A stretch of DNA of 8,991 bases from a virus (taxonomy: Duplodnaviria > Heunggongvirae > Uroviricota > Caudoviricetes): the IMG/VR virus record IMGVR_UViG_2675903578_000015. One strand, given 5' to 3'. Made by a program: the position numbers and the translations under genes. This document shows, piece by piece, positions 1,238-8,587 of the stretch. The notes under the pieces were generated by a model. It was not told the origin of the DNA. It did not search any database and saw only the letters and a list, made by a program, of their open reading frames with translations. Numbering within the stretch: position 1 is the stretch's first letter; every line of letters begins with the position of its first letter.

Positions 1238-1453
1238 TCATGAGTCTTTGATAAACTGATTTATCTTTGGATAGTTATACCAGATAATCCCTCGCTTACT
1301 GTCTGGCTTCCCTAAAGGAGATACTCGTTTGAAGTGGAAGCCTTCCACCCAACAGTTCTGGCGGTATGCTTCAATTTGTCTGGCCCCCAGACCAGTGCGA
1401 AGCATCAGGCCGTATTCAACCATCCACTCTTCATTAAAGATTACTTGTGCCAT
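1238..1453 (-). CDS. xisR: Excisionase-like small DNA-binding protein, 71 aa ([10 protein letters not shown]...)
   Basis: ATG at 1453-1451 preceded by GAGGTGAT Shine-Dalgarno on the minus strand. The 79-aa version in the ORF track starts at a TTG (1477) with no ribosome-binding site. TGA stop at 1240-1238 lies 1 nt from the intR start codon. Matches recalled ydaQ/xisR of Rac. Confidence 0.8.
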
Positions 1454-1504
1454 CGCATCACCTCTGGCAGGCGCCAATGTTAGACTTAAATTGACGCCCG
1501 ATGT

Positions 1505-1520
1505 TGATTATTAATAATCA
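1505..1520. promoter_or_regulatory. Perfect 16-bp palindrome TGATTATTAATAATCA between ydaC and xis, overlapping a plus-strand promoter-like pair TTGACG (1491-1496) - 16 nt - AATAAT (1513-1518)
   Basis: Read directly: the reverse complement of 1505-1520 is identical to itself. Hexamers match sigma70 consensus at 5/6 and 5/6 with a 16-nt spacer. Confidence 0.4.
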
Positions 1521-1552
1521 GCTATGAAGTTTTAATTTGAATACAATGCAAT

Positions 1553-1740
1553 TCACGAGGACTGAAGTTTCTCGCAATTAAAATTTATCAGTTTTACTTT
1601 CTGCTCTCTGGAAACGCCTGCTTCTTTTTTACCTGAGAGCATTTTTTCGCATTCTGATTTCGTTAGTTTAGATTTTGAATATCTTGTCCAGTTAGTAGGA
1701 GTGCCACCTTCCTTTTCAATAGTGGCGGTAATTTTATACA
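1553..1740 (-). CDS. ydaC: Small prophage protein of unknown function, 62 aa from MYKITATIEKEGG... (66 aa if the upstream ATG at 1753 is used)
   Basis: Minus-strand ORF with TGA stop at 1555-1553. The ATG at 1740 is preceded by GGAGG with a 6-nt spacer; the alternative ATG at 1753 abuts the masked block. Position between xis and recT matches recalled ydaC of Rac. Confidence 0.65.
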
Positions 1741-2800: not shown

Positions 2801-5393
2801 TTGCATATTCCTTAGCCCAGCGGGGCAGTGATAACGTCTTAATAGCTGGCCATTCATCGGTATTGAGGCAGTCAGCCAGGGTTCGCAGATTGCGGTGATA
2901 TTCCAGCTGACCTGCCAGTTTTGCTTCTTCGCCCATCATGAAAATTTCAACCGGATAACGTCCGCATTCAATAGTTGTGCTGGCAACCAGAAAAACGAAA
3001 GTTGGCTGCACTCCAAACTGTGCTTCATAACCGTCACTGTAGAATGCATCCTGAACGTGATAGCGGTAGTCGTAATAAGCGGTTTTGAATCGTTGAATAT
3101 CCGCCGTAGTTTTCACGTCCATGATCCAGTGAAATTCAGGGATAATTTTGTCCGGACGGCACCGACACAAAATTGCTGTTTCAGGATCTTCCCAGTAAAT
3201 TGATGATTCAGCGTGTCCGGCGCTTTCAACAAGCCATTGCCCCAGCGGCAAAGCCATAACGCTCTGATACATGAGTTCAATTTTCCGGCCTTCTTCGGCA
3301 GTGATAACCGTTTTTCCTGTGCTTGCGCATTCCCTCAGAAACGCTTTCTCTTCTTCTTTTCCGGAGTTTGTCCGGCGGTTAAATTCAGGTGCTACGATAA
3401 AGCGGTTACTGAATTCTTCCGGCTCAAGTACCCGGCAGTGGAAAGCGGTTCCTAAATCGAGCGTTTTTGTCTTTGTGGTGTCCACGGGGGCATTTTTACG
3501 CCACAAATACAGTGCCGGAGTATCAGCAATGTCATCGAGCTGAGACTTACTGACACCGGGACCCGCGTGGTAATTCTCATTCGAAATTCCGTAATAAATA
3601 CCTGGCTCTATGTCTTCTACGATTACGGGATCTGCGACTTCGCCAGTTTCATCACTGCAATCGCGATGCGGATCGCTGCCAGCATTCTCATTGTGCGGAT
3701 GTTCAGCGCCTTCCATTTCCTCCGGATCATTTTCCTTAGCTTCAACCTGACTCTCTTCATCGAATGTTTCCTGGTATGTTGCGTCGCCCATCACCGCACC
3801 ACAGTCAGGGCAGTTATCCCCGCCAGTCTGGCCGCAGGCATTGCAGGCTATTTCCGGTTCCTGTTGCACTACTGGCTCAGGTTGATTCATATCCGGGCTG
3901 GTTTTTTCCGTTTCTGGCTGGTTCTGGTACACACAATCGCGAGTCTGGATCCCCTTTACCCATTTCGGATCGTTCGGGTCGCTAATTCCGTCAACAAATT
4001 CACCACGTGATGCAGCAAGCAATTTATCGGCATCGACAGGATTTTTTGATGGAATGTTTTTCCGGGCTTCATGGAGTTCTGCCCGCAGTTCCTGATATTT
4101 CGCATCAACAGAATTTACCTGTGACTGAGCATCCAGCGGCTGCGTGTCCTGATGATGTTCAGTTGCGTCCGGTTCCATTGTTTCAGCCTCTCCCTGTTCA
4201 ACTGCCGTTGTTCCAGATGGTTGCGGTTTTTCTTCATCATCCTGTTTTCCTTCTTCTGTTACTCGCTGCGGCATCGGGGCAGAGGAGCGACCGCAGGCAA
4301 TATCCACGATTTCCGGATCAGGGTTGGCATGATCGGTTTCAGTCAGTACTTTGTTCAGATATTCAGTGACGTGCGCGGGGATGACCTCGATCCCAATTGG
4401 TGCTTCTTTTACGGACGCAACCACGATGGCGCGGGAATAATCCAGCCCGCCAGGCATGGTGATGAATTTGTCGCGGAAAACAGAAAAGGGCGGTTTATTT
4501 TCAGCGATAATTTCCTCAATGCGTTTAGCGTGTGCCGGATGAAGGTTATAGATGTCCAGATCCATTGAACGGGCCAGTACGCCAGTGGCTACGTCCCGCG
4601 CCAGTGACGTCAGATCGTGTACGAAACCTTCGCCGCGATCGGTGAGGTTTCCGCCGCCAGCATTAGCACCGGAAGCCGTGCGAGTGATGTGTGAAACACG
4701 ATTACCCTTCATCCACTCTTTTGTCAGCAGTCCTCGATCGGTGTAGTCAGCGTTCAGGTATGCTTCGAAAAAAGCAGTTATCAGTCCCAGGTTTGAATTA
4801 CCAGGATTAGGGAAAACTTTGTCAGTGTCACGAACCAGTTTGTGGAGTTCGCGAATTTCCAGCGGGTCGAGCAGGCTGGTTTTGTGGGAAACAGCCAGGG
4901 CAGTAACAGCCGGTAGTTCTTCAGCCCGAGCAATGTGTAATGCCTGGAGTCCGTCGCGTGAAACGTGCGTTACCGGTTTTTCGCTGCCGTGTTGAGCAAG
5001 CCAACGAATGGGCAGTTCCTGGCCAGAAATTGGGAGTAGCATATTCTCCTCAATCTCAGTCATGTCTTCGCCGTTGACGTTGGTATTGCCTTGATAGTGA
5101 GCGTTGTCTGGTGCTGCTCCCGGTTTTAGTTCCCATGTCATGGAGTCTTTGCTGAGTTGATAGCGTTCACTCCAGGTAAAATCGATCTCACCTTCAGCGG
5201 GCAGGTCATTAACGACAGGAAAATTCGTGGCAACAGCTTTAAAATAGCTGCTCAGTTTTTTACCTGACTTAACGATCAGGTAGTCCAGAGTGGCACAGGT
5301 CGATTCAAAATCGTTGCTTGCCCACAGGACGACGTCAGGTTCACCGGATGATTTTTTCGCTTTCCGTAACAGGAAGAGTGGTTTTGTGCTCAT
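2793..5393 (-). CDS. recE: RecE exonuclease VIII, 866 aa; C-terminal third is the 5'-3' dsDNA exonuclease domain
   Basis: Uninterrupted 866-codon minus-strand ORF, ATG at 5393-5391, TAA at 2795-2793. The 3' end overlaps the recT start by 8 nt (ATGACTAA). Sequence matches recalled RecE. Confidence 0.95.
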
Positions 5394-5464
5394 TGTTTTT
5401 TAACCTCAACTCAGATTAAAATTCGTTTTGTTCAGTGAATGATCTTGCCGGATACACACTGTTC

Positions 5465-5489
5465 ATAGCCTGCGCCATACGCAGGCTAT
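5465..5489 (-). promoter_or_regulatory. Perfect 10-bp stem, 5-nt loop hairpin (ATAGCCTGCG-CCATA-CGCAGGCTAT) in the racC-recE spacer
   Basis: Read directly: 5465-5474 is the exact reverse complement of 5480-5489. It sits 5 nt after the racC stop. A T-rich tail follows on the plus strand only (TTTCTTTCAGATTT); none follows on the minus strand. Confidence 0.45.
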
Positions 5490-5494
5490 TTCTT

Positions 5495-5770
5495 TCAGAT
5501 TTCACCTTTTAATTTCATTGCAATTAGAGTTGCCAGAAATTCGGCTTTTTTTTCTGCGGGCAGATTCTTTCCGATATGCACCAGGCACATTTTTTTGACA
5601 CCTTCATCAAGTGTTTTTACGTTGCCTGATGGACCATCGATATCAACCACAGTGAATGGGGTTTCTTTATTTTCTGTTTTAATTACGTAGCCAATGCGCT
5701 TTCCTTCCAGATTCACCTCGTGAACAATGTCATCGGTAGTTACAACAGTGGCTTCATAATTGGTAATCAT
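5495..5770 (-). CDS. racC: Small prophage protein of unknown function, 91 aa (MITNYEATVVTTDD...)
   Basis: ATG at 5770-5768 preceded by a strong AAGGAG with 6-nt spacer. The 107-aa N-terminal extension in the ORF track has no ribosome-binding site. Matches recalled RacC. Confidence 0.85.
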   Translation of the reverse strand: MITNYEATVVTTDDIVHEVNLEGKRIGYVIKTENKETPFTVVDIDGPSGNVKTLDEGVKKMCLVHIGKNLPAEKKAEFLATLIAMKLKGEI

Positions 5771-5844
5771 GTTTTTCTCCTTAATTAAGGTTGAGCGAAT
5801 ACCTGCCATTTCTGGCATAAATTCAGTTTCGAATAGTCAATTAA

Positions 5845-6015
5845 TTAAAGTTCATGTGCCATCTGGTCTTTTTCGGCACAAGCTTCACTGCAATATTTTC
5901 TCGGTTCGTCTTTTGATAAAATCCCGTGCATGAAGTGAAGCATTCTTTCAATAGCTTTGCTTTCTTCAACGTCTTTTTTGCAAAGGTGGTAAGCACATTT
6001 TATTTTCTTAGTCAT
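5845..6015 (-). CDS. ydaE: Small Cys-rich protein, 56 aa ([14 protein letters not shown]...CSEACAEKDQMAHEL), putative zinc ribbon
   Basis: Below the ORF-track size cutoff; found by manual translation. ATG at 6015-6013 preceded by GGAG with 8-nt spacer, TAA stop at 5847-5845. Start overlaps the kilR stop as TGATG. Cys spacing is C-x4-C...C-x3-C. Matches recalled YdaE. Confidence 0.8.
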   Translation of the reverse strand: MTKKIKCAYHLCKKDVEESKAIERMLHFMHGILSKDEPRKYCSEACAEKDQMAHEL

Positions 6016-6236
6016 CACCATGACTCCGCCTTTACAGGTAAACCATCACGACCGAGGAAGACTTTAATCATGCGGTCAGTAATGCATGTTTTTGTGGTCA
6101 GGTTACGAATATATAGTTTTCGCTTTTTAATATTGTTTGCCGAGGCAATATATGTCCGGCCTTCATGAAGAACATAATCGCCAGGAGTCACACACTGACG
6201 TGGTATTTCATCAGTTCCGAAGTGATGTGCAATCAT
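6015..6236 (-). CDS. kilR: KilR cell-division inhibitor (FtsZ-targeting Kil protein of Rac), 73 aa
   Basis: ATG at 6236-6234 preceded by GGAG with 6-nt spacer. The 77-aa version starting at 6248 has no ribosome-binding site. Translation [32 protein letters not shown]... matches recalled KilR. Confidence 0.85.
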
Positions 6237-6411
6237 AATTATCTCCATTTTTACAAATGAACTTTGTTGATGCGGTGCCTGGTGCCTCCAGGTGACTGCA
6301 ACCAGTTAACAATTACAGTCGGCTTTCCCACCCAAACCAATAAGGACTAACATGACTTTTAACTGTGCCACGTGCGCTTAGCCGCATTCACCGCATCACA
6401 AAATTCACTTT

Positions 6412-6459
6412 AAAAAGGGCGGACATCAGCCGAACTTCAAGAAAAAAACTGATGCCGCC
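6412..6459 (-). terminator. Candidate orientation-specific intrinsic terminator or attenuator upstream of kilR
   Basis: Inverted repeat GGCGGACATCAG (6418-6429) / CTGATGCCGCC (6449-6459), 11 bp with one bulged A, separated by a 19-nt A-rich loop. On the minus-strand transcript the stem is followed directly by CUUUUU (plus 6412-6417); there is no U-tract on the plus strand. The large loop is atypical. Confidence 0.3.
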
Positions 6460-6677
6460 AGGACTACACACAGCAATGTCGTTATTTACAACCGGAGGCG
6501 CACTCCCACCATTTAAATTTAACAGACAAGACCGACTCTTTATGGATATCGGAAATGCGCCTTCGTGTTGTGCCCGGTTTTATTTCACCACCTCCGGGCT
6601 TCGGTGGTCTCGGCTATACCCCTACAGCGAGAGCTTGTGTTAACATTTCAATACCCTTACAGTTGAGAGTTATTGAT

Positions 6678-7097
6678 ATGTTGGATGTATTTACTCCATT
6701 GTTGAAACTTTTTGCTAACGAGCCACTCGAAATACTTATGTATACGATTATCATTTTTGGTCTCACTCTCTGGCTGATACCGAAAGAGTTTACTGTCGCA
6801 TTCAATGCTTANNNNNNNNNNNNNNNNNNNNNNNNNNNNNNNNNNNNNNNNNNNNNNNNNNNNNNNNNNNNNNNNNNNNNNNNNNNNNNNNNNNNNNNNN
6901 NNNNNNNNNNNNNNNNNNNNNNNNNNNNNNNNNNNNNNNNNNNNNNNNNNNNNNNNNNNNNNNNNNNNNNNNNNNNNNNNNNNNNNNNNNNNNNNNNNNN
7001 NNNNNNNNNNNNNNNNNNNNNNNNNNNNNNNNNNNNNNNNNNNNNNNNNNNNNNNNNNNNNNNNNNNNNNNNNNNNNNNNNNNNNACATCAGAGTGA
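6678..7097 (+). CDS. sieB: Superinfection exclusion protein B, inner-membrane protein; most of the body is masked
   Basis: ATG at 6678 with GAGAG upstream. The visible N-terminus MLDVFTPLLKLFANEPLEILMYTIIIFGLTLWLIPKEFTVAFNA contains a hydrophobic transmembrane-like segment. The frame reopens after the mask as ..TSE-TGA at 7095-7097. Matches recalled Rac SieB; exact start and length are uncertain. Confidence 0.7.
   Translation: MLDVFTPLLKLFANEPLEILMYTIIIFGLTLWLIPKEFTVAFNAXXXXXXXXXXXXXXXXXXXXXXXXXXXXXXXXXXXXXXXXXXXXXXXXXXXXXXXXXXXXXXXXXXXXXXXXXXXXXXXXXXXXXXXXXXXXTSE
6812..7085. other. Masked or undetermined bases (274 N)
   Basis: Run of n characters; hides about 90 codons of sieB. Confidence 1.
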
Positions 7098-7654: not shown

Positions 7655-7712
7655 GGTATATAATGTACTTTGTGTTCATTGATGTAAAGTACTATAAGTA
7701 CATTTTGTGTGT
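7655..7712 (-). promoter_or_regulatory. PL/OL-like early leftward promoter-operator region downstream of racR
   Basis: Minus-strand hexamers TTTACA (plus 7683-7688) - 17 nt - CATTAT (plus 7660-7665). Flanked by ATGTACT (7663-7669), its inverted copy AGTACAT (7697-7703) and the palindrome AGTACT (7688-7693). A perfect TATAAT on the plus strand at 7659-7664 has no matching -35. Confidence 0.4.
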
Positions 7713-7778
7713 AAAAAAATGAGATGGGATAAAGTGAAGCACAAACCCGGAGGGGGACGCTACCGGATTTATGCTGGT

Positions 7779-8198
7779 TTAAGAGGCTTTTTGTTTTTTC
7801 TTTCGTGCTAGCTCTTCGTAAATTGCATTGTACTTCTGTTTTTTCTCCTCAAGAGTTTTTAAAAGTTCATCTGTCTCACTGTCAGGGAGCTCGTCCAGAA
7901 GGTCAATGATGATTTTTTGTCTTGGATTTAACTCCTGATAGAAACGTACCTGTCCACTTTCTTCTGTATCCTCTCCCAAAAGATAGGTTGGTGTTGTTCC
8001 AATGAGTGTTGCTAATTCCCTTAATTTCTCTCGGCGAGGAATTGTTTCGCCATTAAACCATTTGCTAACCGCTTTTGGTGTTAATTTCATTCGACGGGCA
8101 ATTTCTGCCTGCCTTCCATGTTGTTCATAACCAGCGTTTTCACAGGCTAGCGCAAGCCTACTGGCGAACTCTTTACGCGCTTTATCTTCATGAACCAT
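7779..8198 (-). CDS. racR: RacR prophage repressor, HTH XRE/cI-like; 139 aa from the ATG (145 aa if the in-frame GTG at 8216 is used)
   Basis: Minus-strand ORF with TAA at 7781-7779. Helix-turn-helix segment QAEIARRMKLTPKAVSKWFNGE. Neither candidate start has a Shine-Dalgarno. Matches recalled RacR. Confidence 0.85.
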   Translation of the reverse strand: MVHEDKARKEFASRLALACENAGYEQHGRQAEIARRMKLTPKAVSKWFNGETIPRREKLRELATLIGTTPTYLLGEDTEESGQVRFYQELNPRQKIIIDLLDELPDSETDELLKTLEEKKQKYNAIYEELARKKKQKAS

Positions 8199-8277
8199 AA
8201 GTTCAATGATATTCACTCTTGAATGTACTGTCAGTTCTGTTATAGCATGTACTCAAAGTTCACATTGTGAGGGTGAT
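8199..8277. promoter_or_regulatory. OR-like divergent control region between racR and ydaS
   Basis: 79-bp spacer between divergent start codons. Direct repeats of ATGTACT at 8223-8229 and 8247-8253, 24 bp apart. Plus-strand promoter-like TTGAAT (8219-8224) - 16 nt - TATAGC (8241-8246). GAGGG ribosome-binding site at 8269-8273 for ydaS. Confidence 0.45.
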
Positions 8278-8574
8278 ATGAACCAGAAAACACTTGAAGA
8301 TGTAATNNNNNNNNNNNNNNNNNNNNNNNNNNNNNNNNNNNNNNNNNNNNNNNNNNNNNNNNNNNNNNNNNNNNNNNNNNNNNNNNNNNNNNNNNNNNNN
8401 NNNNNNNNNNNNNNNNNNNNNNNNNNNNNNNNNNNNNNNNNNNNNNNNNNNNNNNNNNNNNNNNNNNNNNNNNNNNNNNNNNNNNNNNNNNNNNNNNNNN
8501 NNNNNNNNNNNNNNNNNNNNNNNNNNNNNNNNNNNNNNNNNNNNNNNNNNNNNNNNNNNNNNNNNNNNNNNNNN
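8278..8574 (+). CDS. ydaS: Cro-like small regulator/toxin partner YdaS; only the first 9 codons (MNQKTLEDV) are visible
   Basis: ATG at 8278 with GAGGG 4 nt upstream, divergent from racR. The 8574 end is inferred from the recalled length of about 98 aa and lies in the masked block, so it is not observed. Confidence 0.5.
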
Positions 8575-8587
8575 NNNNNNNNNNNNN
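8307..8587. other. Masked or undetermined bases (281 N)
   Basis: Run of n characters; hides most of ydaS and the start of ydaT. The 261-aa ORF 8206-8991 in the track is an artefact of reading through N. Confidence 1.

Follow-up and report, generated by a model that had tools for sequence, protein, structure and literature searches.

A described counterpart of the locus considered here is the dicBF operon of the Escherichia coli prophage Qin, in which the small RNA (sRNA) DicF precedes the division-inhibitor gene dicB. RNase III processing of the full-length mRNA yields a DicF of 72 nucleotides (nt) (PMC5069750); a 190-nt form made by RNase III, a 53-nt form made by RNase E, and both terminated and read-through transcripts have also been described (PMC10448788), and no internal promoter was found in that operon (Ragunathan et al., PMC10448788). 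In prophage Rac of E. coli K-12, the sRNA KilS was predicted from RNA interaction by ligation and sequencing (RIL-seq), verified by northern blot, and found to be Hfq-dependent and to accumulate in stationary phase; it was classed as derived from the 5' untranslated region (5' UTR) of kilR, with yncL as RIL-seq partner (Bar et al., 2021, PMC8175672). Silencing of kilR, a toxic gene, is attributed in the literature to Rho/NusG. A further related system is STnc100, a prophage sRNA family of unknown function that has recently been linked to PasD. Here, these systems are compared with the spacer between kilR and sieB in a viral stretch of 8,991 nt (IMG/VR record IMGVR_UViG_2675903578_000015, the whole of which is called the window), and especially with a bulged inverted repeat and adjoining T-run in that spacer.

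The window represents prophage Rac of E. coli: positions 3507-6811 are 99.8% identical to K-12 MG1655 (BLAST), and window coordinates are obtained by subtracting 1411993 from the K-12 position. In our judgement it is highly probable that the hairpin formed by the inverted repeat terminates KilS, an RNA with its own promoter and the Rac counterpart of DicF, that it attenuates kilR, and that the RNA reading through it is processed in a long helix. The existence, ends and Hfq dependence of KilS, its yncL chimeras, its RNase E site, the processing of DicF and the Rho/NusG silencing are taken from the work of others. The identity of the KilS sequence, the significance of the hairpin, the homology with the DicF locus and the covariation of the kilR leader and of the helix termed P come from the present analysis.

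KilS, its terminator and its likely seed

The features on which the argument first depends are the following:

6412..6509, minus strand: KilS sRNA, 98 nt, equal to K-12 kilS (b4833; RefSeq ncRNA 1418405..1418502, minus strand, between kilR and sieB)
6412..6459, minus strand: predicted intrinsic terminator of KilS, with stem 6459-6449/6429-6418, one bulged U, a 19-nt loop, a C and five U's at 6416-6412
6516..6524, minus strand: likely promoter of KilS, an extended -10 (TGTTAAATT) that precedes the start at 6509 by 7 nt and lacks a recognisable -35
6461..6478, minus strand: candidate KilS seed CAUUGCUGUGUGUAGUCC, beginning at the reported RNase E site 6478

A preliminary description of the spacer had read the inverted repeat as a leftward terminator and had offered an sRNA as a fallback. 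The fallback was borne out, as the spacer encodes KilS, already annotated in K-12: all 98 nt are identical to MG1655 (98/98), the fold has a z score of -3.2, and the gene was found in 1534 of 5426 complete E. coli genomes (28%).

The repeat itself lies exactly where it had been placed (GGCGGACATCAG at 6418-6429 and CTGATGCCGCC at 6449-6459), with 11 base pairs (bp), one bulged base (A6423 of the plus strand, which the leftward RNA carries as U) and arms set 19 nt apart. On the minus strand the RNA reads GGCGGCAUCAG...CUGAUGUCCGCC-C-UUUUU-AAAG, that is, a G+C-rich stem (7 G-C pairs among the 11) directly followed by C and the U-run at 6416-6412. A calculation of folding energy, which had been proposed as a check, gave a free energy (dG) of about -19 kcal/mol, matched by none of 300 shuffles; the best hairpins abutting T5 in 300 shuffles of 6249-6677, both strands included, averaged -4.1 and reached -18.4 at best, none equalling the real one. 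With 19 nt between its arms the hairpin exceeds the short loop (3-8 nt) of a Rho-independent terminator, and it is missing from a consensus terminator scan because that scan permits only such loops; a small inner stem is predicted within the loop. The 3' end of KilS, both annotated and published (K-12 1418405, equal to 6412), coincides with the end of the U-run, and therefore the hairpin is identified as the KilS terminator, in agreement with its earlier reading as a leftward intrinsic terminator. It is probably also the Hfq-binding 3' end of the sRNA. The supplements of Adams et al. 2021, a study of 3'-end mapping, contain nothing for kilR, sieB or the corresponding coordinates.

Related loci were collected by searching the most conserved 22 nt of the kilR leader (described below) against viral contigs, and a degenerate version of it against one genome per species. 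About ten types of hairpin were found upstream of the leader. Apart from one degenerate copy, their dG lies between -9.6 and -20 kcal/mol; a GGCGG...CCGCC stem followed by CUUUUU underlies nearly all of them, and compensated variants such as GGUGG/CCACC and ACCAG/CUGGU occur.

The start site of KilS is listed at 1418502, equal to 6509 (Bar et al., 2021, Table S6, PMC8175672), in a table that covers the KilS region and the 50 nt upstream. The motif TGTTAAATT (6524-6516) is the likely promoter, as judged from its sequence and position; it is kept in KilS-type loci, and Qin-type loci carry TCGTTAAATT, without the TG. KilS would be transcribed leftward from this promoter and would end at the hairpin, and only RNA reading through the terminator would carry kilR. 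Attenuation of kilR would follow because the terminator stands between the gene and every known or likely leftward start.

The insulation that had originally been proposed was different, placing a promoter between the terminator and kilR:

6312..6340, minus strand: promoter-like pair TTGGTT-17-TGTAAT (complements of 6335-6340 and 6312-6317), probably incidental

Under that proposal the hairpin would be a mere insulating terminator of early leftward transcription, and kilR would be expressed from a sigma-70 promoter of its own at 6340-6312. The hairpin is real, both hexamers were confirmed in the sequence, TGTAAT agrees with the -10 consensus at 5/6 positions with a 17-nt spacing, and an older study, as cited in PMC10448788, suggested a promoter upstream of dicB in Qin. 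Nevertheless, we consider this explanation improbable, since the -35 element matches at only 3/6 positions and the pair fails a scan that demands at least 4/6 in each hexamer. The TAAT of the -10-like element sits in a conserved leader hairpin, GUUAAUUGUUAACUGGUUAAC, and the TTGGTT half lies in the variable centre of the covarying leader and is replaced in other kilR-linked copies (L017, L095, L114 and L116). The homologous Qin operon is likewise devoid of an internal promoter in the analysis of Ragunathan et al. (PMC10448788). Contrary to the proposed order of terminator, promoter and kilR, the only reported start found in the spacer (6509) is upstream of the hairpin, in a table that excludes 6249-6411. 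In a modified form the insulation idea is plausible, with the terminator attenuating both upstream transcription and that from the KilS promoter before kilR is reached.

An RNase E site is reported at K-12 1418471, equal to 6478 (Clarke 2014, as listed in Table S6 of Bar et al., 2021, PMC8175672). The stretch that begins there is predicted to pair with positions -42 to -15 of the yncL 5' UTR through 6 bp plus 10 bp (dG -20.8), with the part UGUGUGUAGU facing yncL -33 to -24, and one of 200 mononucleotide shuffles, a weaker control than dinucleotide shuffles, was as good. Because it begins at the RNase E site and is predicted to pair with yncL, this KilS-type 5' stretch is likely to be the seed, whose motif was also found conserved 5' of at least four different terminator hairpins. 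The KilS seed AUUGCUGUGUGUAGUC, which differs from that of DicF, would be able to pair with the yncL 5' UTR. The pair DicF-ftsZ, used as a positive control in the same duplex test, gave z=-1.8; this control is uninformative, because the known pairing uses structured 3' residues, and the yncL result should be weighed accordingly. Pairing of KilS with kilR mRNA, the sieB 5' region or ftsZ was no better than in shuffles, and these candidates were discarded.

KilS might alternatively be a mere by-product of premature termination in the kilR 5' UTR, a purely cis-acting attenuator with no targets. The classification as kilR 5' UTR-derived and the three interactions with low scores (Bar et al., PMC8175672) point in this direction, as does the fact that no regulated KilS target has been published. 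Accumulation of KilS is Hfq-dependent, however, and the single-stranded AUUGCUGUGUGUAGU is conserved 5' of several different hairpins, other members of the family carrying other seeds. This same stretch is complementary to the RIL-seq partner yncL, and the homologue DicF is a proven trans-acting sRNA; taken together, we regard a by-product without targets as unlikely, although a good deal less so than a separate promoter for kilR. Much more doubtful still is an antitoxin-like function of KilS against kilR, of the kind that RalA exerts on RalR in the same prophage. KilS does adjoin a toxic gene and Rac already possesses one sRNA antitoxin, but KilS nt 1-31 and 32-52 pair with the kilR leader and coding sequence no better than shuffles do (fractions 0.085 and 0.79), and KilS-type RNAs also precede dicB and other genes.

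The kilR leader, its closing helix and helix P

Downstream of the terminator, the RNA that reads through would continue into a structured leader:

6237..6411, minus strand: kilR leader, multi-branch STnc100-like RNA, 175 nt from the U-run to the kilR start
6389..6411, minus strand: 5' arm of the long closing helix, AAAGUGAAUUUUGUGAUGCGGUG, pairing with 6277-6255 and differing by one base from the Qin arm
6255..6277, minus strand: 3' partner arm of this helix, CACCGCAUCAACAAAGUUCAUUU, which stops 8 nt short of the kilR Shine-Dalgarno (SD) sequence
6015..6236, minus strand: kilR, FtsZ inhibitor, 73 amino acids as annotated in K-12, with SD GGAG at 6246-6243

The spacer had been delimited as 6249-6677. 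It is indeed the noncoding gap between kilR and sieB, but the annotated kilR start is 6236 and not 6248, and it begins at 6237.

The leader folds with -66.5 kcal/mol (z=-5.9). Its match to Rfam STnc100 (6229-6415, minus strand) reaches 35.5 bits with E=6.6e-5, below the gathering cut-off of 47, and 6256-6422 is 80% identical over 170 nt to the Qin dicF-dicB spacer (BLAST). Covariation was examined in 27 diverse copies from E. coli prophages and other Enterobacterales (among them Citrobacter, Lelliottia, Scandinavium, Buttiauxella and Pantoea): at 26 consensus pairs, 97.7% of the cells are paired, compared with 27-46% when the partners are slid, and double-sided changes occur in 70 cells at nine pairs, against 22.8±3.5 in shuffles (0/500), a control that leaves shared ancestry in. 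That the structure is real is supported by the slid controls and by arms whose sequences diverge strongly among distant genera. At least one leader copy was found in 81% of E. coli genomes.

In most leader-type copies the closing helix has 21-30 bp, with z from -5 to -10 relative to shuffled arms, and the arm sequences are very different in the Lelliottia, Citrobacter, Buttiauxella and other copies. It begins right after the U-run or, in Rac, within it. By coordinates, the 3' end of the 72-nt DicF, 19 nt past that of the 53-nt form, falls inside the arm of the long helix. By homology, the long helix in Rac is probably an RNase III site, with a predicted cut near 6398. The read-through RNA would thus adopt the 175-nt STnc100-like fold, whose closing helix of 23-30 bp ends just before the kilR ribosome-binding site, and RNase III acting in this helix, as its homology with Qin suggests, would part the sRNA from the kilR mRNA. 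Occlusion of the kilR SD by an extended helix (a duplex fold reaching ..AAAAAUGG) was also considered and dropped, because the SD is mostly unpaired in the read-through RNA (probability of being unpaired 0.54-0.92) and two other types of downstream gene lack the helix extension.

Elements of the STnc100 type were also seen in other arrangements. In locus L127 of an E. coli strain, such an element (1376-1598, minus strand, 45.1 bits) comes first, and a KilS-like seed and hairpin (UGCUGUGUGUAGUCUUGGCGGUACCAGC...) stand in the 70 nt directly downstream of it; Rac has the two in the opposite order. A second STnc100-like element was suspected upstream of KilS in the window, from CCCGGAGG...CCGGGCAC and from L127, but gave zero Rfam matches even at E<=10 and was rejected. 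In other Enterobacterales, STnc100-type elements occur in two to three copies a few hundred nt apart (L196 225-1398, L218 3812-4735, L162, L172 and L190), and tRNA-like sequence follows the copies in L218.

On the other side of KilS, a second helix surrounds the promoter:

6488..6572, minus strand: helix P, in which the arm 6572-6556 (CACAACACGAAGGCGCA) pairs with the arm 6503-6488 (GUGCGCCUCCGGUUGU)

A 15-nt imperfect inverted repeat (I1) is part of this longer, interrupted helix, whose loop of about 50 nt contains the KilS promoter and start site. Among 39 variants, 91.2% of the cells are paired, a share that drops to 25-45% with the partner slid; double-sided changes affect 14 cells, against 2.7±1.4 in shuffles (0/500). 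In Qin, the 5' end calculated for the 190-nt DicF, a species that depends on RNase III, falls within the homologous 3' arm (L002 2241-2258). From these alignments, the long form in Rac appears to be made from a promoter inside the loop of the very helix that Qin uses for processing; helix P brackets the KilS promoter in Rac, and in Qin it would be the site at which RNase III makes the long DicF.

Several points weigh against this account of KilS and kilR. The loop of the predicted terminator is unusually large and is followed by only five U's. The source of the start site 1418502, Thomason 2015 or Ju 2019, is ambiguous from the columns of the Bar table, and the 5' end at 6509 could conceivably be a processed one, since RNase III makes the corresponding end in Qin. 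The pairing with yncL is predicted from thermodynamics, and its control is a simple shuffle; RIL-seq gave KilS only three partners, and its sRNA scores are low. RNase III cleavage in Rac would follow from homology with Qin, and two global studies of RNase III make no mention of kilR in their main texts. The choice of the promoter motif, the attenuation of kilR, the RNase III cleavage in Rac and a pairing that regulates yncL are what we infer beyond the observations. As a separate observation, the presence flags and the position columns of the two start-site data sets in Supplementary Table 6 of Bar et al. (2021) are apparently swapped.

The sieB junction and other parts of the window

Two features mark the end of the spacer that is distal to kilR:

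6572..6608, no strand assigned: two interleaved 6-bp repeats, GCCCGG/CCGGGC at 6572-6577/6594-6599 and ACCACC/GGTGGT at 6587-6592/6603-6608
6678..6811, plus strand: start of sieB (K-12 sieB start 1418671, equal to 6678), the remainder being masked by N

A second inverted repeat, ACCACC-N10-GGTGGT, had been noticed here; it exists and is conserved, but lies about 6 nt to the right of the place first given for it. Both 6-bp repeats are kept in Rac-type variants (GCCTG/CAGGC and ACCAC/GGTGG). No U-run stands beside them on either strand, and the second repeat is not a terminator. In Qin-type loci the counterpart of the GCCCGG/CCGGGC repeat is a covarying hairpin, CCCUG-AAAAGU-CAGGG, and both repeats are kept at the junction that has received sieB or other rightward genes. 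The sieB gene, itself such an insert, lies between ydaF and the KilS module; related prophages carry at this junction, beside the conserved repeats, either nothing or another rightward gene (L017, L058, L075, L149, L064, L095 and L026). The Qin-type hairpin (L002, about 2160-2200) resembles lambda boxB and is followed by a conserved CAUAACRCGAAAGCGCA; Rac has GCCCGG-16 nt-CCGGGC (6572-6599) at the boxB-like site. On the minus strand, the interleaved repeats at 6572-6608 have loop lengths of 3, 1 and 9 nt, as in a classical H-type pseudoknot.

The spacer had been said to hold no convincing open reading frame, and this was corroborated. Neither a plus-strand frame of 92 amino acids nor an in-frame extension of sieB has a Pfam match, and a 1-nt length polymorphism in the T-run of the hairpin loop, seen among close relatives, shifts the plus-strand frame; coding potential of the spacer was rejected on these two grounds.

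Elsewhere in the window, runs of N (masked) occupy 1756-2006, 6812-7085 and 8307-8587. The run inside sieB has 274 nt in place of 249 nt of K-12 sequence, so that either the mask does not preserve length or the sieB allele is different. RalA, the sRNA antitoxin of RalR, has a full-length match at 1557-1735 on the plus strand (Rfam RF02694, 225 bits, cut-off 170). The repressor-side immunity region at 7655-8587 has no megablast match to K-12 Rac, its flanks being 98% identical, and looks like a different immunity allele.

A possible modular family and its relation to known systems

Across the collected loci, four or five types of 5' single-stranded stretch were distinguished, namely the DicF type, the KilS type (GAC)AUUGCUGUGUGUAGUC, CCAUGUUGAUUACCUUU and hybrids. 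Hairpins and seeds combine freely with kilR, dicB and two other small open reading frames: a KilS-type RNA stands before dicB in L085, and a DicF-type hairpin is joined to a KilS seed before kilR in L095 and L116. We lean, with somewhat better than even confidence, towards KilS and DicF being two seed variants of one modular prophage sRNA family, whose cassette is reshuffled by recombination in conserved flanks. The module would begin with helix P, which would serve as an RNase III site or, in Rac, would hold the promoter in its loop; next would come a site for RNase E, a seed of 15 nt that can be exchanged and a terminator of the GGCGG/CCGCC type, and last an STnc100-like leader whose closing helix would be a site for RNase III. 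Its place would be in lambdoid early-left operons, ahead of genes that target the host and can replace one another (kilR, dicB and two or more further genes), and recombination in the conserved flanks would bring seeds, hairpins and toxin genes into new combinations. A promoter within the helix used for processing, by which Rac would differ from Qin, would allow a repressed prophage to make the sRNA without the toxin.

If true, the cassette idea would help to explain how small regulators of prophages diversify by seed swapping, and such cassettes are found in a large share of E. coli genomes. KilS adjoins a toxic gene whose silencing matters for the viability of E. coli and for its recovery from oxidative stress. 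So far an orphan with one weak target, it gains a family (DicF), a likely seed and a testable site in yncL, and the comparison suggests that the kilR leader and the region of the KilS promoter are RNase III processing signals common to this locus and the dicBF operon.

The flagged hairpin is already known, as part of an annotated sRNA gene and its terminator, and what the comparison adds extends known systems modestly and does not amount to a system of a new kind. Faubladier and Bouche may already have described a dicF-like sequence of Rac in 1994 (J Bacteriol 176:1150). A link between KilS and DicF was not found in the literature searched, including Bar et al. 2021 (PMC8175672).

Compared with K-12, the KilS of the window has the same 98-nt sequence, position, strand and ends as b4833; the two do not differ, the window carrying the K-12 gene in a different E. 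coli strain.

KilS shares much of its architecture with DicF (RF00039). Both have the stem GGCGG(U/C)AUCAG...CCGCC followed by CUUUUU and an RNase E site just 5' of the seed; both lie in an early-left operon, after a gene of the ydaF/ydfA type and before a division-inhibitor gene, with leaders that are 80% identical; and the upstream helix P is homologous in the two loci. The order of genes common to Rac and Qin (repressor, small open reading frames including DUF1391 (ydaF/ydfA), sRNA, leader, division inhibitor and recE-type genes) was also found in the phage records Rac-SA53 and Tritos. The 5' half of KilS, its promoter region and the preceding motif align with the Qin region where the long DicF begins. 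The differences lie in the 5' stretch (UGCUGUGUGUAGUC in KilS instead of UUUCUGGUGAC), in the loop, in the mapped start site that KilS has for itself whereas DicF arises from processing only, and in the long form, which is about 90 nt longer in Qin than Rac KilS. The Rfam DicF model matches 6417-6472 (minus strand) with 39.1 bits (E=7.6e-6 in the window, 5e-7 in the spacer alone), below the gathering cut-off of 48, whereas in Qin itself the true DicF scores 76.7 bits and the dicF-dicB spacer 34.4 bits for STnc100. KilS is thus a homologue and functional analogue of DicF but stands outside the DicF family of Rfam, because of this sub-cut-off score and because the residues with which DicF pairs with xylR/pykA (5' end) and ftsZ (3' region) are not conserved in it.

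Judged from its sequence and predicted fold, the kilR leader is a divergent relative of STnc100 (RF02076), with which it shares the framework GGUGAAU...CACC(N)GGAGGCACC(N)GGCACC and the multi-branch fold. Leader-type copies elsewhere score 36.9-47.8 bits, compared with 70.4 for the canonical Salmonella copy and 35.5 for the window. Whereas STnc100 stands alone as an sRNA and has a terminator of its own, the kilR leader is joined at the 5' side to a coding gene; the first hairpin, CCCCC...GGGG in STnc100, is GCGGCU.AGCGC in the leader, and the closing helix of the leader is stretched to 21-30 bp.

Processing sites for RNase III are present in other phage early mRNAs, such as the lambda N leader and the T7 early sites. 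As in these, the putative site in Rac is a long and nearly perfect helix just 5' of a gene in an early polycistronic transcript, although the sequences are unrelated. Release of the SD by cleavage, as in the lambda N leader, is not indicated for kilR, because the model has its SD mostly unpaired before cleavage.

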